A DNA stretch of 58,611 bases from Candidatus Magasanikiibacteriota bacterium (GCA_043809645.1 JBDROX010000028.1:1-58611), one strand, 5' to 3'; counted from the stretch's first letter, positions 11,588 through 39,605 are shown. Notes: generated by a model from the sequence alone, not told the origin. Numbers and translations: made by a program.

Positions 11588-12675
11588 ATGACTGAAGAAG
11601 ACAAAAAAATTTTTGTATGTATGTCAGGTGGTGTTGACTCTTCTGTTGCTGCGGCTCTTTTGGTACACGATGGATATGATGTTACTGGGGCGTTCATGGT
11701 GAACTATGATAATGGTGAATCATGTTGGAGAAACGACTATAGGGATGCACTTCGGGTTGCTGCGAAACTTGGTATTCCTCTTCTTAAGTTAGATTTTACA
11801 AAAGACTATAAAGAACAGGTGCTGGATCACATGTTCGCTGAATATAAAAAGGGAAGAACGCCAAATCCGGATGTACTCTGTAATAAGTTAATAAAGTTTG
11901 GTGCCTGGATAGAGAAGGCGAGAGAGCTTGGTTTTGATGCCATTGCAACAGGGCACTACGCAAGCATTAAAATTTTAAAACATAAAAACATAAAAACATA
12001 TCATCTTATTCAGGCGAAGGATGGAAACAAAGATCAGACATATTTTTTGCATCAGTTAAATCAGGAGCAGCTTGCTCATACTTTATTTCCGCTTGGAGAC
12101 TATACGAAAGATGAAGTGCGGTCACTTGCCCGTGAGTTTGAGCTTCCAACAGCAGAGAAAGAGGAGAGTATGGGGATCTGTTTCGTGGGCGAAGTTCCAA
12201 TGAAGGAATTTCTTCAAGAAAGGATTGAGAAAAAACAAGGAAATATTGTGACCTCTAGTGGAGACGTGGTTGGAAAGCATGATGGACTTGCATTTTATAC
12301 TATTGGACAGCGTCACTTGGGAATTCAAAATTCAAAATTCAAAAAGCAGATGGCAAGCCGCTCTACGTGGTCGGTAAGAATAGTCAGAAGAATGAACTCA
12401 TTGTTGGGTTTGAAGATGGCTCAATGCTTTGGGCCAAGGAAATAGTAGTGGAAAACCCTCATTGGATCAGTGGACAGGCTCCTCAGTATCCTTTACAATG
12501 TAAGGTAAGACTACGTCATAGGCAAAAGCTGCAAGCAGCTGAAATTCGAAATTCGAAATTCGAAATTGGGGAAATTCAGGTTGTCTTTGAATCACCTCAG
12601 AGAGCCGTTACTCCAGGACAGTTTGCAGTGTTTTACAGAGAAAAAGAGTGTCTCGGAGGGGGAGTTATTCATTAA
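11588..12675 (+). CDS. mnmA: tRNA 2-thiouridine(34) synthase MnmA, split into two frames at 12340-12346
   Basis: N-terminal part has the PP-loop CMSGGVDSSV, NPDVLCN, ATGHYA and KDQTYFL. The downstream -1 frame reads ADGKPLYVVGKN...RAVTPGQFAVFYREKECLGGGVI, which is the conserved C-terminus. Frames 11588-12445 and 12346-12675 must be joined. Confidence 0.85.
12320..12347 (+). repeat. 7-nt tandem array GGAATTC AAAATTC AAAATTC AAAAAGC (in mnmA, at the frame break)
   Basis: Read directly; it encodes GIQNSKFKK. Confidence 0.9.
12541..12577 (+). repeat. 7-nt tandem array GAAATTC x3, GAAATTG, GG GAAATTC (in the mnmA C-terminal part)
   Basis: Read directly; it encodes EIRNSKFEIGEI. Confidence 0.9.
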
Positions 12676-12686
12676 CCCAAGATGCT

Positions 12687-14198
12687 ATGACAAATTTTTT
12701 CACACATGGCGTCATCAAAAGAAGTTGGCGGCTGGCATATATTGCCTTTGGACTGGTATCAGCAGTCCTCTATGATGTTTTTTTCTGGGACCTCCAGCGC
12801 GGACTTGGGTTTCTTGTCTTTGTTATTTTGTTTACTCTCGGTTTTGTTACTCTCTCTGCAGCAACGAAACAGATTCGTGAGCAAAAAGCATTTTTTCTCC
12901 TGGTACCTATCTCCATCATGAGTTTTGACGTAATGCTCTATAATAATGATCTGGTAACGCGAGGTATCCCTTGGTTTGTTCTTATCCTTATGATTCTTTT
13001 TTGCATTCTCCTTACCTTGCAGAATCCAAATTCATATGAGTTTTCTTTTTCCCAGATTCCAATTCTTAGAAATATAGAGGCAACGTTCCTGAAGTGGGCA
13101 ACAATGTGGAATGATCTCTTCAGATGGAAGACAGATGGAGGAAAAACAACTATCCGAAAGGTTGTTATTGGAATTATAATTTCCGTTCCACTCCTTATTA
13201 TTTTTACTGGGCTTTTCGCTGGTGCAGATGTAGTCTTTGCAGATTTTATTGCAGATATATTTAATTTCAATTTAGAAGAGTCTACTATTTGGAGAGTTTT
13301 CAGAACTGTCGTCCTTACTTTATTTATCTCCAGTGTGTTCTATGTACTTATTAGTAAGAATAATATTCTCGGACACAAGAAGAATGACGTGAGAAAGCTA
13401 GACGGGACTGTGGTTGGAACTATTTTTGCGCTTCTCAACGTACTTTTCCTTATTTTCGTCATTATTCAATTCACATATCTGTTCGGTGGCGCAGAATATG
13501 TTTTTGAAAGAAATCTGACCTTTGCAGAATATGCACGAAGTGGATTCTTCCAACTCGCATGGGTTATTGGACTCTCTGCATTTATGCTTGTGTTCTTCTA
13601 CAGATCAGCGTCGCACCACGGTAGTCATGCCTTTCTAAAGTTTCTCAAAGTGTTCTTCATTGCTCAGGTTATTGTGATTGCTATTTCGGCTCTCTTTCGC
13701 ATGAATCTGTATCAGGATGAGTTTGGGTATACAGTAAAGAGACTCTATGTAGAATGGTTTATATATTTCGCAGTGTTCATTCTTGCTCTCTCTGTGGTAA
13801 GTATTGTTATCAAGTGGAAGTTTCGAAATTTTCTCTACACAAGCATGATGCTTGGACTTCTTGCTTTGACAATCGTTTCTACAATAAATGTAGATAGAGT
13901 GATTGTAAAAGAGAATGTGGATCGGTATCTTAATGAGAACAAAGAGCTCGATGAGCATTATCTTCTCCATGATCTCTCAATTGATGTTCTCCCAGAATTT
14001 GTAAGGATTCAAGAAAGAGGATTTACACTTTCAAAATCAAAAGAAAATAGTAGCCATACATTCAGTATTTCTGTAAGAGACCTTAGTAATAAGACTTCAA
14101 CTAAAACAAAAATATATCAAGAGAGAGATTCGTGGAGAGAATTTAATGTTGGGGCAGAGAAGGGGCATGATATTATAAACAATTTAAGCACTTTATGA
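12687..14198 (+). CDS. Large polytopic membrane protein (DUF4153/DUF4173-like), function unknown
   Basis: About 500 aa with more than 10 TM segments. I chose the ATG at 12687, just after the mnmA stop. Confidence 0.55.
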   Translation: MTNFFTHGVIKRSWRLAYIAFGLVSAVLYDVFFWDLQRGLGFLVFVILFTLGFVTLSAATKQIREQKAFFLLVPISIMSFDVMLYNNDLVTRGIPWFVLILMILFCILLTLQNPNSYEFSFSQIPILRNIEATFLKWATMWNDLFRWKTDGGKTTIRKVVIGIIISVPLLIIFTGLFAGADVVFADFIADIFNFNLEESTIWRVFRTVVLTLFISSVFYVLISKNNILGHKKNDVRKLDGTVVGTIFALLNVLFLIFVIIQFTYLFGGAEYVFERNLTFAEYARSGFFQLAWVIGLSAFMLVFFYRSASHHGSHAFLKFLKVFFIAQVIVIAISALFRMNLYQDEFGYTVKRLYVEWFIYFAVFILALSVVSIVIKWKFRNFLYTSMMLGLLALTIVSTINVDRVIVKENVDRYLNENKELDEHYLLHDLSIDVLPEFVRIQERGFTLSKSKENSSHTFSISVRDLSNKTSTKTKIYQERDSWREFNVGAEKGHDIINNLSTL

Positions 14199-14209
14199 TT
14201 TGCTAGAGT

Positions 14210-16078
14210 ATGAACACTCAAGAACTCCGAGAAAAATATTTAGATTATTTCAAAAGCAAGGGGCACGCGATTATTTCCAGCGCGTCGCTGATTCCGGAGA
14301 ATGATCCAACAACACTCTTCACCGGATCTGGGATGCAGCCAATGGTTCCATACCTGCTTGGTGAGAAGCATCCAGAAGGATCACGAATAGCCGATTCGCA
14401 AAAGTGTTTTCGTGCAGTTGATATGGACGAGGTTGGTGACAATCGGCACATGACATTTTTTGAAATGCTTGGAAATTGGTCACTTGGGGACTATTTCAAG
14501 AAGGAACAAATTGATTGGATGTTTGATTTTCTGACTAGAGAACTTGGGCTTGATCCAAAGAGAATATACATAACATGTTTTCGTGGCAAGGAAGATGCTG
14601 GTATTCCAAAAGATCAGGAAGCTGCCGATCAGTGGAAAGAAAAATTTGACCACCTTGGTATCGATGCAAAGATTGTTGATAATGCTGAAGTAAGTGGCAT
14701 GCAAGAAGGACGAATCTTTTTTTATGATGAGACGAAGAACTGGTGGAGTAGAGCTGGGGTTACAGAGAATATGCCTGTTGGCGAACCGGGCGGACCAGAT
14801 GCAGAAATATTTTGGGATTTCGGAGAGAAGCTAGGTCTTCACGAAAAGTCTGAGTTGAGAGATAGTGTTTGTCATGTGAACTGTGATTGTGGTCGTTTTG
14901 TCGAAATTGGAAACAATGTGTTCATGCAATACATAAAGACCGATCGCGGATTTGAGGAATTAACACAAAAGAATATTGACTTTGGTGGTGGGCTCGAGCG
15001 CATGGTGCTTGCTATGCTAGATAAGCCAGACGTATTTCTTATTGACATTTTTGATAGTGCTCGGAAGAAGCTCGAAGAGTTGTCAGGGAAAGTATATGGA
15101 GACAATGATGAAGAGACAAAAGCATTCCGTGTCATTCTTGATCATATTCGTGCTGCATCATTCCTTATTGCTGACAGTGCGGTACCGTCGAATAAAGATC
15201 AAGGCTACTTCACCCGTCGCCTTGTCCGAAGGGCAGTGAGATTTGCTCAGCAGATTGGTATTACAGAATCATTTTGTCCAGATATTGCACGTGCCTATAT
15301 AGAAGAGTACAAAGATGCATATCCAGAATTAGAAATAAAGATTGATTTTATTTCCAAAGAGTTTGAGAAGGAAGAAAATAAGTTTCGCGCAACACTTGAG
15401 CAAGGCATCAAAGAATTTGAAAAAGGGACTGATCCATTTATTCTTTTTACAACCTATGGATTTCCGTTCGAATTGACAGAGGAGCTTGCAAAAGAAAAAG
15501 GACAGACTATTGATCGAGATGATTTTGAAAAGAAAATGAAAGCACATCAAGAGCTCTCTCGAAAAGGGGCAGAACAGAAGTTCAAAGGGGGGCTTGCAGA
15601 TTCTGGGGAAGAAACAACCAAACTTCATACTGCAACACATCTTCTCCATGCAGCTCTTCGAAAAGTTCTTGGGGATCATGTAGAGCAAAAGGGGAGTAAT
15701 ATTACAGCAGATAGACTTCGATTTGATTTTTCACACGGAGAAAAAATGACTGATGAGGAAAAGAAACAAGTAGAAGACCTTGTGAATCTGGCGATTCAAA
15801 AAGATTATCCTGTTTCATTTCAAGAAATGTCTGTCGATGAGGCAAAAGAAAAAGGAGCGATCGGGCTCTTTGGTGATAAGTATGGAGAGAGAGTAAAAGT
15901 CTATTCAGTTGGCAATCCAGATGGAGGACCAAACGCAGATCCGTCTTCTGATACGTTTAGTATGGAGATCTGTGGTGGTCCTCACGCTGATCATACTGGT
16001 TCACTTGGAACATTCAAAATAAAGAAAGAAGAGGCAAGTAGCGCGGGAGTAAGAAGAATTAAAGCAACACTTGAGTAA
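14210..16078 (+). CDS. alaS: Alanine--tRNA ligase, short form lacking the C-Ala domain
   Basis: Has FTGSGMQPMVPYL and FFEMLGNWSLGDYFK, and an editing domain with TATHLLHAALR and CGGPH. It is 622 aa, against about 875 aa in E. coli. Confidence 0.95.
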   Translation: MNTQELREKYLDYFKSKGHAIISSASLIPENDPTTLFTGSGMQPMVPYLLGEKHPEGSRIADSQKCFRAVDMDEVGDNRHMTFFEMLGNWSLGDYFKKEQIDWMFDFLTRELGLDPKRIYITCFRGKEDAGIPKDQEAADQWKEKFDHLGIDAKIVDNAEVSGMQEGRIFFYDETKNWWSRAGVTENMPVGEPGGPDAEIFWDFGEKLGLHEKSELRDSVCHVNCDCGRFVEIGNNVFMQYIKTDRGFEELTQKNIDFGGGLERMVLAMLDKPDVFLIDIFDSARKKLEELSGKVYGDNDEETKAFRVILDHIRAASFLIADSAVPSNKDQGYFTRRLVRRAVRFAQQIGITESFCPDIARAYIEEYKDAYPELEIKIDFISKEFEKEENKFRATLEQGIKEFEKGTDPFILFTTYGFPFELTEELAKEKGQTIDRDDFEKKMKAHQELSRKGAEQKFKGGLADSGEETTKLHTATHLLHAALRKVLGDHVEQKGSNITADRLRFDFSHGEKMTDEEKKQVEDLVNLAIQKDYPVSFQEMSVDEAKEKGAIGLFGDKYGERVKVYSVGNPDGGPNADPSSDTFSMEICGGPHADHTGSLGTFKIKKEEASSAGVRRIKATLE

Positions 16079-16102
16079 GGAAACAATCACCACGAAACAA
16101 AT

Positions 16103-16128
16103 AAATCTCAAATTCCAAATTGAGATTT
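16103..16128 (+). terminator. Hairpin after alaS (AAATCTCAA-8 nt-TTGAGATTT)
   Basis: 9-bp stem with only a weak T tract after it. The loop region contains CAAATTC CAAATTG, two units of the heptamer family. Confidence 0.45.
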
Positions 16129-16161
16129 GGTTCTTGTTTGTACTTTGTGATTTGTAATTTT

Positions 16162-16572
16162 ATGATGAAGATTTTTCAAAAGGTAAAGAATTTCCTCTGT
16201 CCACATAGGCGCCAGTTCGCCAAGTACTCCATCGTTGGTGTTTCTGGCTTTGTTATTGATCTCGGACTCCTGATTCTCGTCAAAGAGACGTTTTTATTGA
16301 ATCCAACACTTGCTGTAGTTCTGACACAGATTGTTGTTTTGGTTTATAACTTCGTACTCAATAAATTTTGGACCTTTCGAAATAAGGATATTCCGCATAA
16401 ACAGCTTATTCGATATGCTGTTTTGGCGTCATTCAACTATCTCTTGGGAGTCCTTGTGATGTACATTTTCAATGAAATATTTGATTTTGACTACAGACTT
16501 GTTCGGCTTGGAACTGTCATGGCTATGGTTCTTTGGAATTTCTTGCTCTATAAGTATTGGGTCTATAAATAG
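16162..16572 (+). CDS. GtrA-family membrane protein
   Basis: FAKYSIVGVSGFVIDLGLL...NKFWTFRN are the GtrA signatures. There are 4 TM segments. Confidence 0.75.
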   Translation: MMKIFQKVKNFLCPHRRQFAKYSIVGVSGFVIDLGLLILVKETFLLNPTLAVVLTQIVVLVYNFVLNKFWTFRNKDIPHKQLIRYAVLASFNYLLGVLVMYIFNEIFDFDYRLVRLGTVMAMVLWNFLLYKYWVYK

Positions 16573-16679
16573 TGGTATTTTCTACTTATCCCCATGCCAG
16601 GTCAGTTTCCTTGGTTTTTCTCATATTTTTTGCTATAATTAGCACAAATAATTAATATTCATTCTGGTAGTTCAGATTC

Positions 16680-16708: not shown

Positions 16709-16735
16709 GACGCCAGGTTAATTTTTGGTTTAGAA

Positions 16736-16954: not shown

Positions 16955-16967
16955 CAATAAAAAGAAT

Positions 16968-18761: not shown

Positions 18762-19562
18762 ATGTGTATGGAAAATATTATTCTCCCATCAACTATAGAC
18801 TTCCAGGAGACTGACAGCGAGAACGTCGGTCGCATTGAGATCACACCATGTCATCAGGGATATGGGACAACTATTGGCAACGCGCTCAGACGTGTTCTCC
18901 TCTCGTCTCTTCCTGGAGCAGCCGTAGAATCAATCAAGATAGAAGGTGTCCAGCATGAATTTTCTGGTATCGAGGGTGTAGAAGAAGATGTCATTGAGAT
19001 CATTCTAAATCTCAAACAACTTGCAGTCCGATCATATAGTGATGAACCAGTCGTTTTGACACTGACAAAAAAAGGGAAAGGGCCTGTAAAAGCATCTGAC
19101 ATAGAAAAGAATGCAGATGTGGAAGTCATCAATAAAGATCTCGTGATTGCTCATGTATCTGATGATTCCAAAACATTTGAGATGGAACTGACTATTGGAC
19201 AGGGTAGAGGATTTGTTCCAGTGAGCCAGAAAGACACAAAAGGGCTCGATCTTGGAAGAATTGCCATTGATTCTCTTTACACTCCAATCAATGATATTGG
19301 TTACAATGTAGAATCAACTCGTGTTGGTGATGTGACAGACTATGAGAAGCTTGTGCTGACTATTGAAACCAATGGAACACTGACTGCAAAGGAAGCTATT
19401 ATTCAGGCTACACAGATCTTGATGAGTCATTTTTCATTGATTCTCGACTCTGCAGAAGGAAAGAGCCCAGTGTCCACTCTCGATGAAGAGGTGGAAGATA
19501 TAGCTTCTGAGCAAGTTGAAGAAGCAGGAAAAGAACCAAAAGAGGAGAAAGAAGAAGAATAA
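18762..19562 (+). CDS. rpoA: RNA polymerase alpha subunit, N-terminal domain only, with an acidic tail in place of the alpha-CTD
   Basis: GYGTTIGNALRRVLLSSLPGAAV...EDVIEIILNLKQL is the alpha-NTD. The protein ends after about 230 aa with an E/D/K-rich tail, and rplQ follows 25 nt later. The start could be 18762 or 18768. Confidence 0.9.
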   Translation: MCMENIILPSTIDFQETDSENVGRIEITPCHQGYGTTIGNALRRVLLSSLPGAAVESIKIEGVQHEFSGIEGVEEDVIEIILNLKQLAVRSYSDEPVVLTLTKKGKGPVKASDIEKNADVEVINKDLVIAHVSDDSKTFEMELTIGQGRGFVPVSQKDTKGLDLGRIAIDSLYTPINDIGYNVESTRVGDVTDYEKLVLTIETNGTLTAKEAIIQATQILMSHFSLILDSAEGKSPVSTLDEEVEDIASEQVEEAGKEPKEEKEEE

Positions 19563-22234: not shown

Positions 22235-23380
22235 ATGAAAAAAACACTCATTGTCACACTCGAGTTTCCCCCAACTGTTGGGGGAATAGCAACGTATGTC
22301 CATGACATGGCCAATGCTATGGATCCGTCAAAGACCATTGTTTTGACACCAGAACACAAGGAACAAAAGCAGTTTGATGGAAGACAGCGTTACAAAATTT
22401 TGAGAAAAAAATTATTCTCGCCGAAGTTCATTTGGCCACGATGGTGGAAGCTTGTTCGGCACGTCAAGAAAATTGTAAAGCAAGAAGAGATTGAGCTCAT
22501 TATGGTTCATCATGTATTGCCTGCAGGATATGCGGCAATTCTTCGGAAGAAGTTTGGAAAGATTCCTTTCCTTCTCTTCTCACATGGAACAGATCTTGTT
22601 GCTGGTACCGCAACCAAATGGAAGAAGAGAATGGTAACAATGGTTTCTCAGCATGCAGACCAGATTGTATTCAATAGTGAATCCCTCAAGAGAAGATTTC
22701 TCAGAGTGCTTCCTCAGTTTGAGGAGAAATCGCTAGTGCTCTATCCGTGTCCGAATCCATCCTTCCTGCAGTCACCAGACCCAAAAGAGCTTGATGCACT
22801 CAAAGCTCGGTATGCTCTCAAAGGGAAGAATGTTATCCTGTCTGTTTCTAGACTTGCCGAAGGGAAAGGATTTCCACATCTACTGCGTATGATGCCCGAA
22901 GTACTGGAGAAAGCTCCACACACTGTTTGGATGATAGTAGGAGATGGGCCAAAGAAAGATGATCTTATAAAACAAATTCAGGAGATGAATCTTCAGAATG
23001 TCATTCGGTTCATTGGAGAAACACCTCATAAAGATATCAAGAAATATTATTATCTTGCAGACCTCTTCGTTCTCCTCACACATCCTGACGAGGGAAGAGA
23101 AGAAGGTCTTGGTCTTGTCTTCCTCGAAGCAGCGGCCGCAGGTCTTCCTGTAGTTGCTGGGAGAAGTGGTGGTGTGGAAGAGGCTGTGAAAGATAAGGAA
23201 ACAGGACTTGTTGTGGACCTGCGTGCACAAGCAAAAGATATTCCAGCTATGATCTCAGAGCTTCTCAATAACCCAGAAGAGCTTGCAGAAGTGGGAGAGA
23301 GAGCCAAGGATAGAATCAGAAGTGATTTCGTCTGGGAGTATCAGCTCAATAAACTTAAGCCTTGGTTACAGGATGAATAA
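22235..23380 (+). CDS. GT4 (GT-B fold) glycosyltransferase
   Basis: PPTVGGIATYV N-terminus and the C-terminal EGLGLVFLEAAAAGLPVVAGRSGGVEE (E-x7-E). Confidence 0.85.
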   Translation: MKKTLIVTLEFPPTVGGIATYVHDMANAMDPSKTIVLTPEHKEQKQFDGRQRYKILRKKLFSPKFIWPRWWKLVRHVKKIVKQEEIELIMVHHVLPAGYAAILRKKFGKIPFLLFSHGTDLVAGTATKWKKRMVTMVSQHADQIVFNSESLKRRFLRVLPQFEEKSLVLYPCPNPSFLQSPDPKELDALKARYALKGKNVILSVSRLAEGKGFPHLLRMMPEVLEKAPHTVWMIVGDGPKKDDLIKQIQEMNLQNVIRFIGETPHKDIKKYYYLADLFVLLTHPDEGREEGLGLVFLEAAAAGLPVVAGRSGGVEEAVKDKETGLVVDLRAQAKDIPAMISELLNNPEELAEVGERAKDRIRSDFVWEYQLNKLKPWLQDE

Positions 23381-24098
23381 TATGCGACCTCTCATCAGTG
23401 TCATTATTCCGGTCTATAATCAGGTAGACAAGTTTAAGCTTGCTTTGCTATCGATCGAGAATCAGACCTATAAGAATATTGAGATTATTGTAATAGACGA
23501 CGGCAGTGAAGAAGAAATTCAAAATTCAAAATTCAAAATTAGTAAAGATATTCCACTTCATCTTTATAGACAAGAAAATAAAGGAGCCCCAGCTGCGAGG
23601 AACAAGGGATTTGAATTATCAAAAGGGGAATACGTCATATTTTGGGATGCAGATATTATTGCATATCCAGAAATGCTGGAGAAGATGTATCTAGCTCTAC
23701 AGCAAGAAAGCCAGGTGAGCTATGCATATTCAGATTTTTATTTTGGAAAGAAGAAGATGAAAGCAGGGGGGTTTGATGGGGAGAGATTGAAAAAAAATAA
23801 TTATATTACAACAGCAAGTCTTATTCATCGTGAGGATGTTGTTCCGTTTGATGAGAATCTAAAACGTTTTCAGGATTGGGATCTGTGGCTCACAATGCTC
23901 GAGCAGGGGAAGAAGGGTGTCCATGTCCCAGAGTTTCTTTTTACAATTATTCCTGGTGGAACCATGAGTTCCTGGCTTCCATCATTCGCATATAAAAAAC
24001 CCTGGAGATGGATTCCAGGGATTGAGAAGAAAGTGGAAAAATATGAGGAGGCAAAGGGAGTAGTCCAGAAAAAACATCATTTAAAAACATCTGCTTAG
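23373..24098 (+). CDS. GT2 glycosyltransferase
   Basis: ISVIIPVYNQ...VIDDGSEE...NKGAPAARNKG...WDADI (DxD). The start overlaps the GT4 stop. Confidence 0.85.
   Translation: MNNMRPLISVIIPVYNQVDKFKLALLSIENQTYKNIEIIVIDDGSEEEIQNSKFKISKDIPLHLYRQENKGAPAARNKGFELSKGEYVIFWDADIIAYPEMLEKMYLALQQESQVSYAYSDFYFGKKKMKAGGFDGERLKKNNYITTASLIHREDVVPFDENLKRFQDWDLWLTMLEQGKKGVHVPEFLFTIIPGGTMSSWLPSFAYKKPWRWIPGIEKKVEKYEEAKGVVQKKHHLKTSA
23514..23541 (+). repeat. 7-nt tandem array GAAATTC AAAATTC AAAATTC AAAATTA (in GT2 gene)
   Basis: Read directly; it encodes EIQNSKFKI. Confidence 0.9.
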
Positions 24099-25613: not shown

Positions 25614-26780
25614 TTATCGCTTATTTTTGTCCTTATTTTTTCCCAGTGGATGATGTTTGGCTCCATACGTGCCTAGACATTCTACAGAATAATCTCTTGT
25701 TTGGTCGACAATATTAATCCCTTGTATTTTTTTGATTTTATTAAGTTTTTGAAAGGCCCGTCTTGTTGCATCGCGTTCTTTAATTTTTAGTGGTAACCGA
25801 GCTACTTCTTTCAGTCCTGTTTCTGTATATTTATTTTGCCTGGTTTGTTTAAGTATTTTTTGTTCGGCCCTGTCTTGTCGCAGTGATTGTGCCACAGCAC
25901 GTATGAGGGAATCTCTGAATTTTTTGTCTCCAGATATTTTTTCCTTATCAATTCCGGGAAAGTATTGTTCTATTAAATCAGCACCCGCTTCAATATCCCC
26001 TTTCATAAGAACAATCATTAACTGCCCTTGTTCCTGACATATCATTTCTTTTGTTCTGAGGTCGTCGTCTAATTTGTCTAATTCTTTGATAGCAGATTCA
26101 TTTAATATTTTTTTTGCTTCTGGGATTGCTTTCACAACACGAGATACATACACTCTTTCATAAGAAGTATCTTCATCGTTTTCCTGAGAAAAATTATCCT
26201 TTGGAATAGTAAAATTTGGATCTTGAATTTGCTCAGCATGTCCAAATTCATGTAAAAGTGATGATATACTTTCAGGTTTTTCAAAATTTGGCACATAGAC
26301 AATTTTTTGTGCATGGTCGATTACCGAGTATCCAGGAGTTAGGTCAGAAATCTCAGGAGAGCTTATAACTTTGTATCCTTTTGGTGCAAATTCTACCACA
26401 TCCACCGATGTTGGTTTACCATCTTTCTCACCCTTGAGTAAAACAGATTTTACAATCGCAGCTCTATTTATTTTATATTCAAAACCATTTATTACCCCAA
26501 GAGCCATGTCAATTTTTTGAGATTCAAATTCTACCTCTGCAGTGCAAATCAAATTTCCCTCAGCATCTCTATACTCATGTGTTTCAGTTAGGCCTTCACG
26601 ATTTTCTTTCCCTTCCTCCTCGAACTCACTCAACGCATCTGCTGCCTCATCTTCGACCTTTTGGAGATTTTGTATGGTCTGATCATCTAATGAAATATCT
26701 CTTTGTTCTGCAATAGCCTCTGCGGCAGGAATACCAGACTCTATAAAATCATCATACTCTTGTCGTGCTTGCGATAGCAT
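25614..26780 (-). CDS. Hypothetical protein with an HExxH motif (HEFGH), acidic N-terminus and basic C-terminus
   Basis: 388-aa ORF. SSLLHEFGHAEQ is the only recognisable motif, and I cannot assign a family. Confidence 0.5.
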   Translation of the reverse strand: MLSQARQEYDDFIESGIPAAEAIAEQRDISLDDQTIQNLQKVEDEAADALSEFEEEGKENREGLTETHEYRDAEGNLICTAEVEFESQKIDMALGVINGFEYKINRAAIVKSVLLKGEKDGKPTSVDVVEFAPKGYKVISSPEISDLTPGYSVIDHAQKIVYVPNFEKPESISSLLHEFGHAEQIQDPNFTIPKDNFSQENDEDTSYERVYVSRVVKAIPEAKKILNESAIKELDKLDDDLRTKEMICQEQGQLMIVLMKGDIEAGADLIEQYFPGIDKEKISGDKKFRDSLIRAVAQSLRQDRAEQKILKQTRQNKYTETGLKEVARLPLKIKERDATRRAFQKLNKIKKIQGINIVDQTRDYSVECLGTYGAKHHPLGKNKDKNKR

Positions 26781-26874
26781 TTCGTTATAACCTAGCTCTT
26801 TTGCCCCTTCTTGGGGTTCGTGGCTTTCAATCTCGCCTGTTGGTTGTAATTCAGGACTCTTAGTTATACATTTA

Positions 26875-27027
26875 TTAACTTTTTAATATTTTTTTTCTTA
26901 AATTTTCTATACTTTTTTTATCAATTTTTGAAATAAAAACCTTGATAATATCTGTTTGTCTTGAGCGCAACTTTTTCATTCTTTTTTTAAAATTTGATTG
27001 TGCTTTGAGGAATTTTTTGTCATCCAT
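26875..27027 (-). CDS. Small (50 aa) highly basic ORF following fmt
   Basis: MDDKKFLKAQSNFKKRMKKLRSRQTDIIKVFISKIDKKSIENLRKKILKS. The ATG is 5 nt after the fmt stop. No SD is seen and the sequence is AT-rich, so it may be spurious. Confidence 0.25.
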   Translation of the reverse strand: MDDKKFLKAQSNFKKRMKKLRSRQTDIIKVFISKIDKKSIENLRKKILKS

Positions 27028-28561: not shown

Positions 28562-30451
28562 TTAATGGGAGAGTATTGAAATTGGATTTGGATCAATCTT
28601 CCAGGATCCTGGAACAAATCCATTTATCCATACAAGGTCTTCTTGCCAGGTTTTTTGATCCAGTTTTATGAGAATGCTGTACCAGTATTTTCTTCTATAA
28701 AAGATAGGATGCATTTCTATTGGATCGCCAAGTATAGCGGTTTTTTTCGCTTTTGTCAACTCTCCAGAGAGAAGGAAATAGAGTCGTTTTGCCTGGATTT
28801 CTGCTATATCCTTCTGCATGTGACCAAAGAAATATCTGGTAAGATACACATATGGTGGGTACCCCAGGGAGCGTCTGATGTTGAGATCAGTTCGGTACAT
28901 CCGGTCTGGCTCATTGAGAGACCTGAGTGTGAGCTGCTTTGGGTTGAAGGTCTGGATAAAAAATGTACTCAAATTATTTTTGCGAAACATAACTTCCTGG
29001 ATTCGGTGCCAGACATGTTCTGCAGCTCGAAATTCTGGGAGGATGAGTTGCTTATCAATATCAATAAAAATAATGAGCTTTGTTTTATTCCACCTAATCT
29101 GAGAAAATGCCATTTCTGTTCCAATAATAATCCTTGGCTTATCGCTGTCTGGAAGCACATGATTTGAATTGCTGTCAATTCGAATGATCTCATGACTATT
29201 TTGGCCAATAGTTTTTCTGAGTATTGTCTCAACCTGCTCTGTGCCCATACCACGAAGTTCTACTATGGTAGATTTGCATGCTGGACACTGTGTAGTCATC
29301 GGTTTGTTACTTTTACAATAATGACAGTGGAGTGTTCTGGTCTCGCTATGGAAGATTAACGGCAGTGTACACGTTGGACACACTTCCTTGAATCCACAGT
29401 CATTGCATCCCACAGAGGTAGCATATCCTTTTCTATTTATAAATATGAAGACATCCTCCTTCGCCTCCAGGAGCGCATTTTGTACTCGATCACCAAAGAC
29501 ATCGTAGTTTCTTGCTTTTCTTTCTTCTGACATGTCGATGAGTGCGTAGTTCTTTGTTCTTAGTTCATAGTTTTTTGCTGAGTATTGTTTTTTGTGTATG
29601 TGAAAGTAACTTTCGACACTTGGAGAGAAACTTGCGTAGGTGAGAGTTGCTCCTGTCTGCCACGAAAGAAGTTCCGCCACGTCTTTTGCATGAAATCGAG
29701 GATTCTGATCCCAGTGCTTATGGTTTTCTGCATGTTCATAGTCGAGCACGATGTTTTTTAGATTAAAAAAAGAAAGGAAAACAGAACTTCTGGTTCCAAT
29801 AATAATGTCTTTTTTCCCATTTCGAATATCAAGCCATCGTGAAAATTTTTCTTTTGTTGATAATGTGCTGTGCCAAGAAACTACCCGATCTTTTTTTTCG
29901 TCTGGAAGGGAATCATATACTTCATCAATCAGGTAGACTTCTGGAACAAGAATCAGCGTTTGGGCTTGGAGCTTCTCAAAAAGTCTCGTATGTTCATTTT
30001 GGCTCGAGTAGAGTCTATACTCTGGTTTTTTCTTTTTTACTGGCCGCTGTTTTTTTATTTTCTTTAGTTCAATTTTTTTGATCTTTCTTTTTTGTATTGG
30101 GAGTACTGACATCTTTGCCATCTGTGCAATAGAAACGCCATACCAGGAACTTGTGGTAGACAGTAATTCGAGATATTGCTCTGAAACAAGAGGTACTTCG
30201 TGAACAATATTGACGAGTAGTTTTAGATCTTCACTGCTATCTTTCTTTTTAATAGAAAAAACAAGTCCAAATTCTTCGGACTTTTGAAATGGAATTGTAA
30301 CAAGTTGGCCTAGCTTAATGTTTTTTTCAAATTCTTTTGGAACGCTGTAGCTAAAAAGGCCGAGGTGCCTTGGGAGACGCCTAAGTGGAATGATGTGTGC
30401 GTACACAGTTTTTTTAGAATTCAAAATGGCCTGTAAGATATCCGACACCAA
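28562..30451 (-). CDS. priA: Primosomal protein N' (PriA) homologue with degenerate helicase motifs
   Basis: The Cys-rich zinc region CNDCGFKEVCPTCTLPLIFH...CHYCKS...CPACKS and LILVPEV / GTRSSVF / DYEH align to PriA. No GxGKT Walker A is visible: YSSQNEHT sits where GVTGSGKT is expected. Confidence 0.8.
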   Translation of the reverse strand: MVSDILQAILNSKKTVYAHIIPLRRLPRHLGLFSYSVPKEFEKNIKLGQLVTIPFQKSEEFGLVFSIKKKDSSEDLKLLVNIVHEVPLVSEQYLELLSTTSSWYGVSIAQMAKMSVLPIQKRKIKKIELKKIKKQRPVKKKKPEYRLYSSQNEHTRLFEKLQAQTLILVPEVYLIDEVYDSLPDEKKDRVVSWHSTLSTKEKFSRWLDIRNGKKDIIIGTRSSVFLSFFNLKNIVLDYEHAENHKHWDQNPRFHAKDVAELLSWQTGATLTYASFSPSVESYFHIHKKQYSAKNYELRTKNYALIDMSEERKARNYDVFGDRVQNALLEAKEDVFIFINRKGYATSVGCNDCGFKEVCPTCTLPLIFHSETRTLHCHYCKSNKPMTTQCPACKSTIVELRGMGTEQVETILRKTIGQNSHEIIRIDSNSNHVLPDSDKPRIIIGTEMAFSQIRWNKTKLIIFIDIDKQLILPEFRAAEHVWHRIQEVMFRKNNLSTFFIQTFNPKQLTLRSLNEPDRMYRTDLNIRRSLGYPPYVYLTRYFFGHMQKDIAEIQAKRLYFLLSGELTKAKKTAILGDPIEMHPIFYRRKYWYSILIKLDQKTWQEDLVWINGFVPGSWKIDPNPISILSH

Positions 30452-33601: not shown

Positions 33602-34273
33602 ATGAACACTGGAGTACTCTACATTGTTGCAACACCAATTGGAAATCTCAAAGATATTACTTTTCGGGCAGTTGAGACTTTGAAAAAAGTTGATTTAGTT
33701 TTGTGTGAAGACACACGAGTTACAAAGAAACTTTTGTCGCATTATCAGATTGACACACGGACAATGAGCTACCATCAGCATTCGGATGACAAGAAAGTGA
33801 AAGAAATTATTGAACTGCTTCAAGACGGAAAAGATCTTGCGCTGGTGACTGATGCCGGTACGCCGGGAATTTCGGATCCAGGTGGCCACCTTGTGGCTGA
33901 AATTCGAAATTCGAAATTCGAAATTCGGGCAGTTCCTATTCCAGGTCCTTCCGCGGTTACTGCGGCTTTGTCGATTTCTGGATTTCCAACTGACAAGTTT
34001 TTCTTTATGGGCTTTCCTCCACATAAGAACAAAAGAAAGAAATTTTTTACTGAAGTTGCTGATGCCAAGTATACGGTTGCGTTTTATGAATCAAGTCATA
34101 GAATACAGAAAGCACTGAAAGAGCTCGAAGAAGTGCTAAAGAAAGATAGAGAGATGTGTGTTTGCCGGGAATTAACAAAGAAATTCGAGAGTATCTATTG
34201 TGGAACGGTTGAAGAGATTCTAGAAATGGAAATCCCGGAGAAAGGGGAGTTTGTTGTTTTAGTAAGAAAATAG
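33602..34273 (+). CDS. rsmI: 16S rRNA (cytidine1402-2'-O)-methyltransferase
   Basis: LYIVATPIGNLKDITFRA...LCEDTR...DAGTPGISDPG...PGPSAVTAAL. Confidence 0.93.
   Translation: MNTGVLYIVATPIGNLKDITFRAVETLKKVDLVLCEDTRVTKKLLSHYQIDTRTMSYHQHSDDKKVKEIIELLQDGKDLALVTDAGTPGISDPGGHLVAEIRNSKFEIRAVPIPGPSAVTAALSISGFPTDKFFFMGFPPHKNKRKKFFTEVADAKYTVAFYESSHRIQKALKELEEVLKKDREMCVCRELTKKFESIYCGTVEEILEMEIPEKGEFVVLVRK
33899..33929 (+). repeat. 7-nt tandem array GAAATTC x4 followed by GGG (in rsmI)
   Basis: Read directly; it encodes EIRNSKFEIR. Confidence 0.95.
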
Positions 34274-34277
34274 AAGT

Positions 34278-35027: not shown

Positions 35028-35034
35028 TAAACAT

Positions 35035-36549
35035 ATGAAAAAACAATTTTACATTTCAACTGCCATTCCATATGTGAATGCGAGGCCTCATATTGGGCAT
35101 GCTTTGGAATACATACAAACTGATGCTGTTGCTCGGTATCAGCGGCTCGTCGGCAAGGATGTATTCTTTTTGTCTGGCACCGATGAGAATTCACTCAAAA
35201 ATGTTCAGGCTGCAGAAAAGGCTGGGAAGAGTGTTCAGGAATTTGTTGATGAACATTACACCTATTTTTATAATTTTAAAGACGCACTGAACATTTCTTT
35301 TGACGACTTCATTCGTACGACAGAGGGAATACATTTCAAAGGTGCCCAGAAGCTATGGTCGAATTTCAAGCCAGAAGATTTGGAAAAGAGATTATACAAA
35401 GGACTCTATTGCATTGGGTGTGAAGCATTTTATAAAGAAGAAGAACTCGTTGATGGAAAATGTCCAGAGCATAAAGTAGAACCAGAGACGGTAGAGGAAG
35501 AGAATTGGTTTTTTAAACTCAGCAATTATCAAGAGAAGATCAAGGAGCTCATAGAAAAAGATGAAATCAAGATTCTACCAGAATCAAAAAAGAACGAATG
35601 GCTGGCGTTCATTGATCGAGGACTTGAAGATTTTAGTATTTCGAGATCGCATGAGCGTGCACATGGTTGGGGAGTTCCAGTTCCTGGAGACGAGGGGCAG
35701 ATCATGTATGTCTGGGTGGATGCACTGTCGAACTATATCACTGCGCTTGACTATGCAGAGGATGGAGAGAGATTCAAAAAATACTGGCAAGAGTGTGAAG
35801 ACAGAGTTCATGTTATTGGAAAGGGGATTGGGAAGTTTCATGTACTTTATTGGCCAGCAATGTTGCTTTCTGCGGGTGTTGCACTTCCTACAGAAGAATT
35901 CATACATGGATATGTGACAGTAGAGGGAGAGAAGATTAGTAAGTCACTTGGAAATACTATTGATCCATACGAGGTTACAGAGAAGTACGGAATTGACCCT
36001 GTTCGGTTTTACCTCCTTGGAGCTATCTCTTCTGCTCAGGATGGAGATTTTTCAATAGAGCGATTTGAAGAATTCTATACAGCCCATCTTGCGAACGGCA
36101 TCGGAAACCTTACTTCTAGAATTCTAACAATGCTTGAAAAATATTCTGAATCAAAGGTGCCGGCCATTTCAGAAGATATATTTGACACACCAACATTTTG
36201 GGATAATTACGAAGTTTCTTTTGAGAACTATAAGTTTGAGGATGTTGTTGGATACATAAATAAACTTGTTGCACTCTGTGACGGAGTCATCTCAGAGCAA
36301 AAGCCATGGGAAAAAGAAAAGGCTGGAGAAAATATTGATGAACTTCTATATCAGCTTGCTGAGTGCCTCAGACATATTGGATTGGCTTTGCTTCCAATTA
36401 TTCCACAAAGTGCTGGAAAGATTCTCTTCGGGCTTGGAATTGAGGCGGGGAGCTTGGAAGATTTAAAGATTGAGAAAAAATGGGGAAAATTACAAAGTGG
36501 TCAAAAAGTTGAAAAAGGTGATGCATTATTTCCTAGGCTTGTGCAATAA
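35035..36549 (+). CDS. metG: Methionine--tRNA ligase
   Basis: HIGH-type PHIGHALEY, KMSKS-type KISKSLGN, and the zinc knuckle CIGCEAF...CPEH. Confidence 0.95.
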   Translation: MKKQFYISTAIPYVNARPHIGHALEYIQTDAVARYQRLVGKDVFFLSGTDENSLKNVQAAEKAGKSVQEFVDEHYTYFYNFKDALNISFDDFIRTTEGIHFKGAQKLWSNFKPEDLEKRLYKGLYCIGCEAFYKEEELVDGKCPEHKVEPETVEEENWFFKLSNYQEKIKELIEKDEIKILPESKKNEWLAFIDRGLEDFSISRSHERAHGWGVPVPGDEGQIMYVWVDALSNYITALDYAEDGERFKKYWQECEDRVHVIGKGIGKFHVLYWPAMLLSAGVALPTEEFIHGYVTVEGEKISKSLGNTIDPYEVTEKYGIDPVRFYLLGAISSAQDGDFSIERFEEFYTAHLANGIGNLTSRILTMLEKYSESKVPAISEDIFDTPTFWDNYEVSFENYKFEDVVGYINKLVALCDGVISEQKPWEKEKAGENIDELLYQLAECLRHIGLALLPIIPQSAGKILFGLGIEAGSLEDLKIEKKWGKLQSGQKVEKGDALFPRLVQ

Positions 36550-36577
36550 CATTTATTGATACACGTCTTGTAATATT

Positions 36578-37531
36578 ATGGATTATAAAAAACTAAAAGA
36601 ATTTGGCAAAGTGAAGCTCAATGAGCCACTTGCCAAGTACACAACATTCAAGATCGGTGGACCAGCTGATTGCTTTGTGATAGTGGACACATCAGAAAAT
36701 TTTGCAGAAGTTCTGAAGTATTTAGATGGTGTTGGGCAAGATTACATCATCCTAGCCGGAGGAAGCAATGTGCTTGTCGGTGATGCTGGATACAAAGGTG
36801 TGGTGATTCATCCGAGAAACTCGAAACTTGAAATTCGAAATTCGGGAATTCTTGTTGAAGCAGGATGTCCTACAGCAAGAGCTGCACAGGAATCTATCAA
36901 AGCAGGTTTTGTCGATTTTGCATGGGGAGTTGGGATTCCCGGAACTATTGGTGGTGCGATCCGTGGGAATGCAGGGGCTATGGGAAGTGAGATGAAAGAT
37001 CATGTAGAGAAGCTCGAAGTATACCGAGATGGAGAAGTCATCGAGCTTTCAAATGAAGAATGTGAATTTGGATATCGAGAAAGCATTTTCAAACATGGTG
37101 GGGGAATTATTCTACGTGCTTGGCTCAAGCTCGAAAAAGGTGATGCAGGGAAGGCTATGAAAGAGGCCATGGAGCACTTATCATATCGTGCGTGTAATCA
37201 GCCACAGGGTTTTGGAAGCGCTGGATGCACTTTCAAGAATCTTCCTATCTCAAAAGAGGAACAAGAAATTATTAAATCTAAAACAGATGACCCAAAAGTT
37301 CTTGAAACTATGGAAAAGTATAATAAAGTCCCGATTGGTCGACTTATTGAGCTATGTGGTTTGAGAGGTTTTCGGATTGGCAACGCAGGCGTGAGTGAAA
37401 AACATGGTAATTTTATTGTAAATCTTGGAGAAGCGACAGCAGAGGATGTACACACTGTAATTGAAAAAGTAAAAGAAAAAGTGTATACTACTTTTGGTAT
37501 TTCTATTCAAGAAGAAATCTATTTTATGTAA
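36578..37531 (+). CDS. murB: UDP-N-acetylmuramate dehydrogenase
   Basis: TFKIGGPADCF...GGGSNVLV...GIPGTIGGAIRGNAGA...AGCTFKN. Confidence 0.93.
   Translation: MDYKKLKEFGKVKLNEPLAKYTTFKIGGPADCFVIVDTSENFAEVLKYLDGVGQDYIILAGGSNVLVGDAGYKGVVIHPRNSKLEIRNSGILVEAGCPTARAAQESIKAGFVDFAWGVGIPGTIGGAIRGNAGAMGSEMKDHVEKLEVYRDGEVIELSNEECEFGYRESIFKHGGGIILRAWLKLEKGDAGKAMKEAMEHLSYRACNQPQGFGSAGCTFKNLPISKEEQEIIKSKTDDPKVLETMEKYNKVPIGRLIELCGLRGFRIGNAGVSEKHGNFIVNLGEATAEDVHTVIEKVKEKVYTTFGISIQEEIYFM
36816..36851 (+). repeat. 7-nt tandem array GAAACTC GAAACTT GAAATTC GAAATTC GGGAATTC (in murB)
   Basis: Read directly; it encodes RNSKLEIRNSGI. Confidence 0.9.
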
Positions 37532-37546
37532 TAAACATATATCAGT

Positions 37547-39109
37547 ATGTCAACATTAAAACCCCAAGTAAGGAGTTTTTTTTATAGCCTTTGTGCTGTC
37601 TTCATGTTTGTAGGCTCATTTCTTGTATCTATTCCTCAGGCACATGCAGAGTCAAAAGAGTTCGTTGGCTCTTTTTCTCCAATCACAACAGTACCGTTTA
37701 TGGATACGAATGGATCTGGGGTTATCTGGTTTGATGCTGGAGCAAACACAATAAAGTATAAAAATGTTACGCTGGGTACAACAGCCGAAATAAAAGATAT
37801 TACTCAATTTAAAGGATTGTCTTTACTTTGGGATGGTATTTATTGGGTTGATGGTTCTGTGTTGTATGAATACAAAATTAGTACAAAGGTGAAGAAACAG
37901 ATGCTTGATCTTTCCACGATAGAGGATATTGAAAAAGATGCAAAGGAATTTTGGCTCAGGACAATGGTTTCTCCGCTCTTTTTTGAATATTCAGTCAGAG
38001 ATAATAGTGGAACCACACACAGAAAACAGTATGATTTCAACACACAGCAAGCATTCGGAGTTACTGGAAGATCTGGAAGTACTCTCTTTGGAGATTCAAA
38101 TGAGTTTTTTAAGAAGAGTGGAGATGCCGCCTCTGATTCGTTTTATGAACTTGCCTATTTGGGTCAACATATTGTTCTTATAGGACATCCTACACAGTTT
38201 GGTGATTCGTACGACGAACTGAGAACAAAGATCGTTCCACTTGGAATTCCTACAACAGTAAAAAGCGGTATACAATTTACAGGTATGTTTCGAGATGGAA
38301 AGTCAGAAAAGGATAGGGCTGTATTTTGGAGATCAACTGGTTTGTATGTACTCAATACAAATACAGGAAATGAGACAAAACAAATTGAGGATTTTTCTCA
38401 ATCAACAAATATAACATGGACAGGATCGGATGCGCTCTGGTCAGTAAAAAAAGCAGATAGTAATTATTACTATTGGTATAACGCAACAATGGATGCTACC
38501 TGCTACTTGGATCAAGATGATTCAATATTGTCATCTAATCCAAATTATAGTCTTACGAATGGATTTCTTTTTTGGTCAACAAATGAAGGAAAAGTATATT
38601 CAAAGAGGCTGGTCTGTACAGATGAACCAGTAGGAAGCACTACGAGTCCAACACCAACGATTACAGCTTCATCAGGTGACTTGATAAAGATGGTTGGAAA
38701 TCCTTCCGTATATTATCTTGGGGCAGACGGGAAACGGTATGTGTTTTACAATGAAAACATTTTTTTGAGCTGGTATACTAGTTTTTCTGGTGTTAAGGAG
38801 TTGTCAAAAAAACAGATGGAAGATATTCTTATTGGTGGAAATGTTACCTATCGACCGGGCAAATTGATCAAGATTACGACAGATCCAAAAGTATATGCAG
38901 TGGATAAAGGGGGAGCATTGCGATGGATAAAGACTGAAGAAGTTGCTGCAGCCCTTTTTGGGAAGTCTTGGGCAGGTCAAATTATTGATGTCCCAGACTT
39001 TCTTTTTGTGAATTATAAGATTGGGAACTCAGTCAATGCTGCTTCAGATTTTAGCCCATATAATGCCAAAATAAATAATTCAACAATCAATATTGACAAA
39101 AGTCTTTAG
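37547..39109 (+). CDS. Secreted hypothetical protein with C-terminal repeats shared with the 31236-33518 protein
   Basis: Signal peptide, then two C-terminal motifs (PSVYYLGADGKRYVF, PKVYAVDKGGALRWI) resembling PTVYVIQDGTKRSF in the carboxypeptidase protein. Confidence 0.55.
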   Translation: MSTLKPQVRSFFYSLCAVFMFVGSFLVSIPQAHAESKEFVGSFSPITTVPFMDTNGSGVIWFDAGANTIKYKNVTLGTTAEIKDITQFKGLSLLWDGIYWVDGSVLYEYKISTKVKKQMLDLSTIEDIEKDAKEFWLRTMVSPLFFEYSVRDNSGTTHRKQYDFNTQQAFGVTGRSGSTLFGDSNEFFKKSGDAASDSFYELAYLGQHIVLIGHPTQFGDSYDELRTKIVPLGIPTTVKSGIQFTGMFRDGKSEKDRAVFWRSTGLYVLNTNTGNETKQIEDFSQSTNITWTGSDALWSVKKADSNYYYWYNATMDATCYLDQDDSILSSNPNYSLTNGFLFWSTNEGKVYSKRLVCTDEPVGSTTSPTPTITASSGDLIKMVGNPSVYYLGADGKRYVFYNENIFLSWYTSFSGVKELSKKQMEDILIGGNVTYRPGKLIKITTDPKVYAVDKGGALRWIKTEEVAAALFGKSWAGQIIDVPDFLFVNYKIGNSVNAASDFSPYNAKINNSTINIDKSL

Positions 39110-39127
39110 TTCTGAAGTAAAAAGAAT

Positions 39128-39156
39128 AAACCTGTGTCTTATGCACAGGTTTTTCT
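39128..39156 (+). terminator. Intrinsic terminator
   Basis: AAACCTGTG-7 nt-CACAGGTTT followed by a T tract. Confidence 0.8.
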
Positions 39157-39233
39157 GATCTACAATTGATGCCGCCATAGAAACAGTGTACTATAGTTAT
39201 AGAGAGGTGAATAAGAAAATAATCACATAGTAT

Positions 39234-39596
39234 ATGAATATCAACATCAAGTCGACAAATATCGAACTCACTGATGCAGTGAAAGAATATGCACTTGAGA
39301 AAATTGGGAGCTTAGAAAAATATTTCGATAATATCCAAGGGGCTGATATCGATCTTGGAATGCACAGTACGCATCATCAGAAAGGAAAGGTGTTTTATGC
39401 AGAAGTGAATATGCTTGTTCCTGGAAAGAAGCTTCGTGTCGTAAAGGACTCAGAGGATCAATACAAAGCCATAGACAAAGTAAAGGATCATCTCAAGGCT
39501 GAATTGGAAAAAATGAAAGGGAAGATGAGGTCATTTGACCAAGAGGAATTGAGGGGGGTGAAAGAATATCAGGAAGAAGATGAAATAGGAAATTAG
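39234..39596 (+). CDS. hpf: Ribosome hibernation promoting factor (HPF/RaiA family)
   Basis: MNINIKSTNIELTDAVKEYALEKIGSLEKYF... is the short-HPF fold sequence. Confidence 0.88.
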   Translation: MNINIKSTNIELTDAVKEYALEKIGSLEKYFDNIQGADIDLGMHSTHHQKGKVFYAEVNMLVPGKKLRVVKDSEDQYKAIDKVKDHLKAELEKMKGKMRSFDQEELRGVKEYQEEDEIGN

Positions 39597-39605
39597 AAAT
39601 TCGGG
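39582..39605 (+). repeat. 7-nt tandem array GAAATAG GAAATTA GAAATTC GGG spanning the hpf stop codon
   Basis: Read directly. Confidence 0.8.

Follow-up and report, generated by a model that had tools for sequence, protein, structure and literature searches.

Tandem repeats of 7-nt units occur in excess in many bacteria, and polymerase slippage has been proposed as the cause (PMC4692102; PMC4679880). Described families of such heptanucleotide simple sequence repeats (SSRs) include the STRR of heterocystous cyanobacteria, GGGNATC in Xanthomonas and Nostoc, and TAACTGA in Beggiatoaceae, Cyanobacteria and Bacteroidetes (PMC4692102; PMC4679880), and over-represented bacterial heptanucleotide repeats are the subject of Mrazek et al. 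2007, as cited in these two papers. Here we report six arrays of the 7-nt unit RAAATTC in a stretch of 58,611 nt from Candidatus Magasanikiibacteriota bacterium (GCA_043809645.1 JBDROX010000028.1:1-58611), which is referred to at its full length as the window. The arrays resemble the described SSRs in that they consist of tandem 7-nt units with few copies per array at many dispersed loci, that the unit families are lineage-specific yet scattered over phyla, and that about four units are preferred. In both, stop codons set the orientation that is tolerated, and an accepted mechanism is lacking. The described SSRs differ in length between strains by steps of 7 nt, and steps of this size were seen here in loci L123, L138 and L150 of another phylum (L labels denote the relatives or matching loci compared in this study, and P labels orthologue proteins). 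The main departure is one of location: while the known repeats are mainly intergenic and under-represented in coding sequence, the window arrays lie inside conserved housekeeping genes. Furthermore, unlike the described SSRs, they stand in for native segments of the same length, occupy orthologous positions in relatives of only 56-78% protein identity, and show a concerted unit turnover in which stops are avoided in phase. The arrays are a new, coding-sequence variant of the known bacterial heptanucleotide-repeat excess, which is itself unexplained. Literature searches on the unit sequence and on repeats of the Candidate Phyla Radiation brought up no description of arrays of this kind, either from within conserved genes or from that group.

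The best protein matches of the window are to Candidatus Magasanikbacteria and other Patescibacteria, with top identities of 78% for RsmI, 68% for MnmA and 63% for MurB, and its source, as judged by sequence, is a Magasanikbacteria-like Patescibacterium. An earlier note on this DNA had listed six RAAATTC arrays, all on the plus strand, and had named their hosts as MnmA, a GT2 glycosyltransferase, RsmI, MurB and HPF; arrays, coordinates, strand and hosts were all confirmed, as were the translations it gave and its observation that four of the arrays close with GAAATT(C/G)GGG. Five arrays lie within coding sequence and one spans a stop codon. The arrays and their host genes, including the open reading frames (ORFs) of the first, are the following:

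11588-12675, plus strand: mnmA, carrying arrays 1 and 2, in two ORFs (11588-12445 and 12367-12675).
12320-12347, plus strand: array 1 (A-type), GGAATTC AAAATTC AAAATTC AAAAAGC, at mnmA site 1, in the loop after YTIGQRHLG.
12541-12577, plus strand: array 2 (G-type), (GAAATTC)3 GAAATTG GGG GAAATTC, encoding AEIRNSKFEIGEIQ, at mnmA site 2, in the C-terminal domain.
23373-24098, plus strand: GT2 glycosyltransferase gene, host of array 3, its start set at MNNMRPL.
23514-23541, plus strand: array 3, GAAATTC AAAATTC AAAATTC AAAATTA, between DDGS and RQENKG of the glycosyltransferase.
33602-34273, plus strand: rsmI, host of array 4.
33899-33929, plus strand: array 4, a perfect (GAAATTC)4 followed by GGG, in rsmI, encoding E100-R109.
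36578-37531, plus strand: murB, host of array 5.
36816-36851, plus strand: array 5, GAAACTC GAAACTT GAAATTC GAAATTC (GGGAATTC), in a variable segment of murB of fixed length.
39234-39596, plus strand: hpf, whose 3' end is array 6.
39582-39605, plus strand: array 6, degenerate, GAAATAG GAAATTA GAAATTC GGG, covering the hpf C-terminus, the stop codon and the start of the 3' untranslated region.

When (RAAATTC)3 was searched for with up to two mismatches, nine overlapping matches were obtained at five loci, all on the plus strand, against none in 100 dinucleotide-preserving shuffles; the sixth array, at the hpf stop, is weaker and matches (RAAATTC)3 at 18 of 21 positions. According to Tandem Repeats Finder (TRF) and lag analysis, each array holds 3.3-4.1 copies, and four of them are 100% identical over 23-29 nt. 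All six fall within 27 kb of the window, and their overall density is 0.1 per kb. We also scanned the window for self-similarity at every lag, with a threshold of 18/21 and a laxer one of 15/21. At the former, seven arrays were found at lag 7 against 0-1 at lags 4-12, and at the latter nine against 0-4 at the other lags from 4 to 13, meaning that period 7 is the sole enriched tandem period in the window. The nine lag-7 arrays comprise the six of RAAATTC and three of other units, which are located in minus-strand genes:

6141-6171: AAAGATT GAAGATT AAAGATT AAGGATT (plus-strand reading), in a minus-strand radical-SAM gene at 5910-7541.
29545-29572, minus strand: AACTATG AACTAAG AACAAAG AACTACG (sense reading), encoding KNYELRTKNY, in priA.
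43651-43680, minus strand: ATGAACT ATCAACT ATCAACT GGCAACT (sense reading), encoding MNYQLSTGNYEL, in the GTPase domain of lepA.

We take the lepA array to lie between the G2 and G3 motifs, in a segment presumably close in length to that of E. coli LepA. Perfect 7-nt periodicity thus recurs in unrelated genes, and because selection on protein sequence cannot yield such periodicity, the earlier note's suggestion of a DNA-level process, as opposed to convergence of the proteins, was borne out.

Heptamer arrays stand at the same sites in relatives, as first seen in the syntenic relative L121, where murB reads C GCAGTTC GCAGTTC GCAGTTC AGGGAGA against A GAAACTC GAAACTT GAAATTC GAAATTC GGGAATT in the window, and where the alignment of the two MurB proteins has no gap at the array. 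DNA arrays were then predicted for other relatives from a 7-residue periodicity in their peptides, and every prediction that could be checked held. At the rsmI and murB sites the units compare as follows:

rsmI site, window: four copies of GAAATTC.
rsmI site, L154: GACTTAA GACTTAA GATTGAA GACTTAA.
rsmI site, L155: GATTTAA GATTTAA GATTGAT GATTTGG.
rsmI site, L157: CAGATAG CAAATAG CAATGAG CAAATAG.
rsmI site, L121: a decayed four-unit version, of another unit, in the same register.
rsmI site, L156 and L122: periodicity absent.
murB site, window: CTCGAAA CTTGAAA TTCGAAA TTCGGGA.
murB site, L160: TTCGAAA TTCGAAA TCCGAAA TCCGAAA, with the TTCGAAA unit of the window.
murB site, L121: three copies of TTCGCAG.

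The GT2 site of L155 carries GAATTAA GAATTAA GAATTAT GAATTAA at the same offset from the DDGS codons as array 3 of the window. In L158, CAGAATG arrays are present at both MnmA sites, that of site 1 (GAATTCA GAATGCA GAATTTA GAATGCA) being in register with array 1, and in L159 (from GCA_035092285.1) the array at MnmA site 2, CAAATTC AAAATTC AAAATTC, begins at the same nucleotide after the GCT codon as array 2. L121 has just one lag-7 array in its 20.7 kb, at the murB site, L157 likewise has just one, at the rsmI site, and L158 has no more than two, which occupy MnmA sites 1 and 2; the rsmI site is also occupied in L154 and L155, the latter having a further array at the GT2 site, and MnmA site 2 in L159. 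Because the only lag-7 arrays of several relatives sit at these sites, coincidence is out of the question. The register is conserved, and the units differ concertedly, at the same unit positions in every copy. The window arrays have positional homologues in relatives with MurB identities of only 56-63%.

How uniform the unit is within a genome varies. A rule of one array unit per genome was considered and rejected: it held for the window, for L155 and for the MnmA sites of L158, and failed for L159, where TTACTGC, CTTTATA and AAAATTC occur at different places, for L154, which also mixes units between sites, and for the same-contig protein pairs P0148/P0286 and P0163/P0272, in which the unit differs between sites. 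In L159, long intergenic arrays were also observed, one of about 11 copies of TTACTGC (6236-6319) just upstream of a TrwB/TraG-like ATPase gene and one of about 4.5 copies of CTTTATA (19478-19516), and intergenic arrays therefore grow far longer than coding ones.

These unit patterns bear on the idea that the arrays are functional cis-elements, that is, tandem heptads on which a DNA- or RNA-binding protein assembles cooperatively, with the unit co-evolving with its factor and the sites lying inside genes because a compact genome has little intergenic DNA. Heptad binding has precedents, as the omega repressor binds 7-bp heptads and HutP binds UAG triplets at 7-nt spacing. The idea is nevertheless rather unlikely in our view, as unrelated units are found at different sites of other genomes (L159 and the same-contig pairs), periodicity is lost at constant length in many orthologues (at the rsmI and murB sites), no candidate binding factor was identified, and the Rfam scan of the window, like the scan for tRNAs, returned nothing. 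In its favour are the retention of about four units across deep divergence, the one unit common to the six window arrays, and the one unit occupying both MnmA sites in each of the window, L158 and P0176. A four-unit preference has also been reported in other bacterial heptamer families (PMC4692102), and a role as regulatory binding sites has been proposed for TAACTGA repeats (PMC4679880).

The periodicity extends across the clade. At the MurB site, identity at a lag of seven residues reaches 15.9% in 119 orthologues, against 2.5-7.8% at other lags. At least three matches at lag 7 were found in 28 of 119 orthologues at MnmA site 1 (0-7 at other lags) and in 21 of 119 at MnmA site 2 (2-11 at other lags), while no lag-7 excess was found in the N-terminal control region of MnmA. 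The peptide types that recur (MQNAECR, IQNSEFR, IRNSKFE, IQNSKFK, VRSSQFA, ELRIKNY) are translations of related units, and a related unit set, RTKCRVA in one rotation, recurs across sites and lineages. The loci assembled for a lag count gave 370 arrays at lag 7 against at most 20 at any other lag, and in 122 loci there were 232 perfect arrays of at least three copies at period 7 against 0-10 at other periods. Arrays matching (RAAATTC)3, mostly of AAAATTC, were recovered at over 120 loci belonging to Nostocales, Bacteroidota, Acidobacteriota, Verrucomicrobiota, Planctomycetota and several candidate phyla. Metagenome contigs that carry (GAAATTC)3 followed by GGG number 31, a large share of them at 55-65% G+C, and some metagenome (GAAATTC)n arrays continue straight into GGGACTC or GGGATTC arrays (L123, L133, L138, L144 and L150, 41-65% G+C). 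Composite arrays of related heptamers therefore occur in phyla far from that of the window. L123, L138 and L150 have identical flanks around three, three and four GAAATTC units, respectively, which amounts to 7-nt steps.

The arrays occupy structurally tolerant segments of their host proteins, namely a hairpin, a loop or a helix-loop-strand where a structure or model was checked. In RsmI, E100-R109 runs from the last part of a helix through a loop into a strand (model with a mean pLDDT of 90), in a segment that is hypervariable among orthologues and, in the window, as long as in most of them. The MurB segment is 26 amino acids (aa) long in nearly all of the 119 orthologues, periodic or not. 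Compared with solved structures, MnmA has two and three additional residues at its two sites and MurB is one to two residues shorter. The loop at MnmA site 1 is bimodal among orthologues, at 12 and about 19 aa, which are three units apart, and the long loops are the periodic ones. The hpf array adds a 6-aa C-terminal extension that the HPF proteins of L121 and L160 do not have; a terminator-like hairpin with a T run was noticed by eye after this array. On these sequence comparisons, the arrays are not insertions, and replace native segments with little or no change of length. The earlier note had supposed that orthologues carry an unrelated hairpin of similar length at these positions, which is true of distant homologues, as judged by the solved structures of MnmA and MurB, but not of closer relatives, whose heptamer arrays occupy these positions.

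Rickettsia palindromic elements (RPE), reportedly described by Ogata et al. in 2000, are comparable as repeated DNA carried in frame within unrelated housekeeping genes, in surface-exposed, tolerant parts and at sites common to related species. However, RPE are palindromic, 100-150 bp long and lengthen the protein, whereas the arrays are tandem, 24-37 nt long, mostly without length gain and mostly non-palindromic. Upon single-strand folding, only the two perfect G-type arrays showed hairpin potential (z = -3.2 and -1.7), and the other four window arrays and those of relatives folded no better than shuffles. An RPE-like insertion, as raised by the earlier note, was accordingly not upheld, given the native length of the segments (MurB at 26 aa, and RsmI), the presence of arrays at the same positions in relatives and the scarcity of hairpins. 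It seems quite improbable to us that the arrays are what is left of a selfish repeat, tolerated in frame, that had earlier multiplied by copy-and-paste into many genes and has since become fixed and begun to diverge. The recurrence of the RTKCRVA set at different sites and in different lineages would fit such an origin, as would the roughly 7 aa by which MnmA site 1 is longer in array-bearing than in array-free orthologues, and the HPF tail missing from L121 and L160. Against this, murB and rsmI have the same length with or without arrays, the short arrays have no terminal structure, and no transposase or other mobility function linked to them was found. Moreover, lasting periodicity in deep-branching lineages requires ongoing homogenisation, which decay after insertion would not supply. 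The 3' GGG was likewise considered as the end of a mobile unit, a proposal weakened by relatives with other units that share Arg/Gly codons there (rsmI, murB, mnmA site 2). GGG does not follow the G-type arrays recovered in a scan of GTDB genomes, and for three of the four GGG ends in the window, a conserved boundary in the protein is a better reading than a piece of a mobile unit.

Signs of selection are visible in the repeat units. In arrays whose unit contains TAA or TAG, the copy in which the stop would be read in frame is altered, GACTTAA to GATTGAA, GAATTAA to GAATTAT, and CAAATAG to CAATGAG. RAAATTC is free of stops in all sense frames, which fits its perfect periodicity, and its product, (E/K)I(R/Q)NSKF, is a polar, turn-compatible peptide. 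Read in antisense, AAAATTC contains TGA whatever the frame, and GAAATTC yields a more hydrophobic peptide, EFRISNF. The orientation shared by the window arrays is largely explained by coding. Outside the window the picture is mixed. In the GTDB genome scan, all 53 arrays in long ORFs were sense-oriented, including eleven with G-type units, the antisense frames of which are stop-free where the unit is GAAATTC. Several arrays of the high-GC metagenome hits are antisense to the longest ORF, and MnmA of P0139 contains FPISNFQFP, which by back-translation from the protein would be the antisense reading of a GGAAATT-type array.

With regard to the observation of the earlier note that no array was seen in the opposite orientation or in minus-strand genes, the first half stands for RAAATTC: the window has no independent minus-orientation array, the minus-strand hits at 17-18/21 mirror quasi-palindromic plus-strand arrays, and the sole other such hit (17/21 at 26209-26232) falls inside the shuffle range. 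The second half is incomplete, since minus-strand genes hold the heptamer arrays of other units listed above. A strand-specific genomic signal, whether an uptake sequence or a Chi- or KOPS-like motif, draws its appeal from the location of all six arrays on the plus strand under a GC skew that is positive across most of the window. Nevertheless, all six are sense arrays in plus-strand genes, so that gene strand and replichore are confounded within these 58.6 kb, and the minus-strand genes with arrays of other units, the P0139 peptide and the antisense metagenome arrays do not accord with a strand signal. Uptake sequences (the USS of Haemophilus and the DUS of Neisseria) are single motifs of 9-12 bp found about once per kb in both orientations and identical genome-wide. 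They resemble the arrays in being DNA motifs within genes, at weakly constrained protein positions and with unchanged protein length, but the arrays are tandem heptamers whose sequence varies by site and lineage. A motif of 21-28 nt at 0.1 per kb, whose unit varies between relatives at one site and between sites in other genomes, is extremely unlikely to be such a signal, and this suggestion of the earlier note was not supported, in view of the inconstant unit, the low density and an orientation that coding largely explains.

The first array was found to differ from the others in one respect. It had been described as lying in frame, which proved incorrect, as mnmA is split into its two ORFs exactly there. 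The reading frame shifts at the last, decayed unit of the array (3' end), TTC AAA AAG C, and a full MnmA, alignable end to end with solved structures, is restored by the addition of one A, by the addition of one 7-nt unit or by a -1 shift. From the conserved GGA to CCG codons, the site measures 35 nt in the window (42 nt with an extra unit) against 39 nt in L158. The defect is compatible with the loss of one unit, on comparison with relatives of at most 78% RsmI identity, and no other broken gene was found among the window genes checked. It may represent a pseudogene, an assembly error in the A run, a one-unit loss or a frameshift that the cell reads through. TTC AAA AAG C resembles a lysine-codon slippery sequence, and MnmA thiolates U34 of tRNA-Lys, affecting frame maintenance. 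A coding repeat of another kind is present in the gene too: at 11977-12000, an 8-nt unit (AAAACATA) occurs three times in perfect tandem, within KILKHKNIKTY, a stretch three residues longer than in solved MnmA structures.

A frameshift at an array brings to mind contingency loci, of which the 7-bp repeats upstream of hmw1A in Haemophilus influenzae are an example mentioned in PMC8262952. In both cases, short tandem units are involved whose gain or loss can alter expression, and one window array sits at a frameshift, with mnmA in the off frame. Phase variation, with one-unit slippage toggling the host gene off and on, would be served by the shift of frame that accompanies each 7-nt unit gained or lost, by the break of mnmA exactly at an array where one extra unit restores it, and by the variable copy number among related contigs of another phylum. 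We consider it very unlikely, since the gene is intact at five of the six arrays and the hosts are housekeeping genes (murB, rsmI, mnmA, lepA, priA) rather than surface or restriction-modification genes. Known contingency loci consist of many units, vary between close strains and are placed at the promoters or 5' ends of genes of these latter kinds, whereas the arrays are found mid-gene or 3'-terminally in core genes and have only 3-5 units, typically about four, a number conserved between distant relatives.

We lean, with moderate confidence, towards the interpretation that the RAAATTC arrays are old microsatellites resident in coding sequence, members of a set of heptamer arrays found across the Magasanikbacteria-like Patescibacteria, homogenised by slippage-type events and filtered by selection. 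The arrays would have been inherited vertically at fixed positions, and the homogenising mechanism that we infer would consist of slippage-type events, that is, transient out-of-register pairing followed by templated correction, that keep them periodic. Length would change in frame only, by the gain or loss of three units (21 nt), and purifying selection on the host protein would act as a filter that keeps the frame, holds the length near native and changes those copies that bring a stop into frame. RAAATTC, being stop-free and polar-coding, would thereby be able to reach perfect periodicity in the sense orientation, while a change of a single unit would lead to a frameshift, of which the broken mnmA is a likely example. 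Among the three possibilities offered by the earlier note, a hypermutable microsatellite comes closest: the arrays are microsatellites, and one is found at a frameshift, but they lie mid-gene and have kept about four units over deep divergence.

Several points weigh against this interpretation. Slippage alone leaves the single unit family of the six arrays in plus-strand genes unaccounted for. Of the AT-rich heptamer classes, 222 are stop-free and 41 of these also hydrophilic, and elsewhere units differ between sites; the requirement for a stop-free, AT-rich and hydrophilic unit, considered as the cause of unit sharing, was rejected because 41-222 classes are too many. Slippage by a single unit is a frameshift, which murB and other essential genes should tolerate very poorly, so that homogenisation must be length-neutral or proceed by 21 nt, and such events are themselves conjectural. 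The interpretation leaves unaccounted for why the period is 7, persistent near-perfect arrays could equally reflect selection for function, and repeated formation at the same permissive sites is not fully separable from common descent. Unit sharing in the window may stem partly from the retention of an old unit, which L160 has in murB and L159 at MnmA site 2, and the low G+C of the window genome may contribute to it.

An alternative that we regard as unlikely is a dedicated templated process, or a heptad-reading factor, that rewrites or homogenises coding heptamer arrays within and between loci. The agent could be short single-stranded DNA or RNA that is copied into sites of partial match, or else a polymerase or reverse transcriptase that works in a 7-nt register. 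The window encodes a reverse transcriptase (RVT_1, about 45111-46095, from about residue 350 of a long ORF at 44089-46095), with the motif LGNLTSQ, which we take to be typical of diversity-generating retroelements. The arrays were considered as targets of such an element and this was rejected, as no template/variable repeat pair was found around the reverse transcriptase and the arrays are mid-gene tandem heptamers. A link between the arrays and this gene was rejected as well, neither a template/variable pair nor a heptamer template having been found. The open frame ahead of the reverse transcriptase (44089-44700) is unusually GC-rich and ends in an Asn-rich stretch.

Other features of the window are a TrwB/TraG-like coupling-protein ATPase gene (8296-9918) upstream of the mnmA region, with a TrwB/TraG-like gene likewise upstream of mnmA in L159; an RNase H-like gene (RVT_3/RNase_H) adjoining recJ at 39635-41720, directly downstream of the hpf array; and an AT-rich tandem repeat of 2.6 copies of a 23-nt unit (26871-26929), just past the 5' end (26780) of the minus-strand ORF 25614-26780.

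The excess of heptanucleotide repeats in bacteria was noticed in 2007, has never been explained and has been treated as an intergenic curiosity. Arrays located in essential, well-understood enzymes provide fixed coordinates, given by orthologous residue and codon phase, for nucleotide-level comparison across the clade, and allow existing genomes to be used for asking how short repeats stay periodic, what sets the period at 7, and whether they serve a function or are neutral. In practical terms, reduced genomes have in these arrays places where the frame shifts and where several protein residues change rapidly together, and gene callers and alignments can be misled by them. If a templated process were indeed at work, a single unit could spread through many of the genes in a genome, as seems to have happened with RAAATTC here, which would amount to genome-wide concerted evolution of coding microsatellites and would point to the cause of the period-7 excess.

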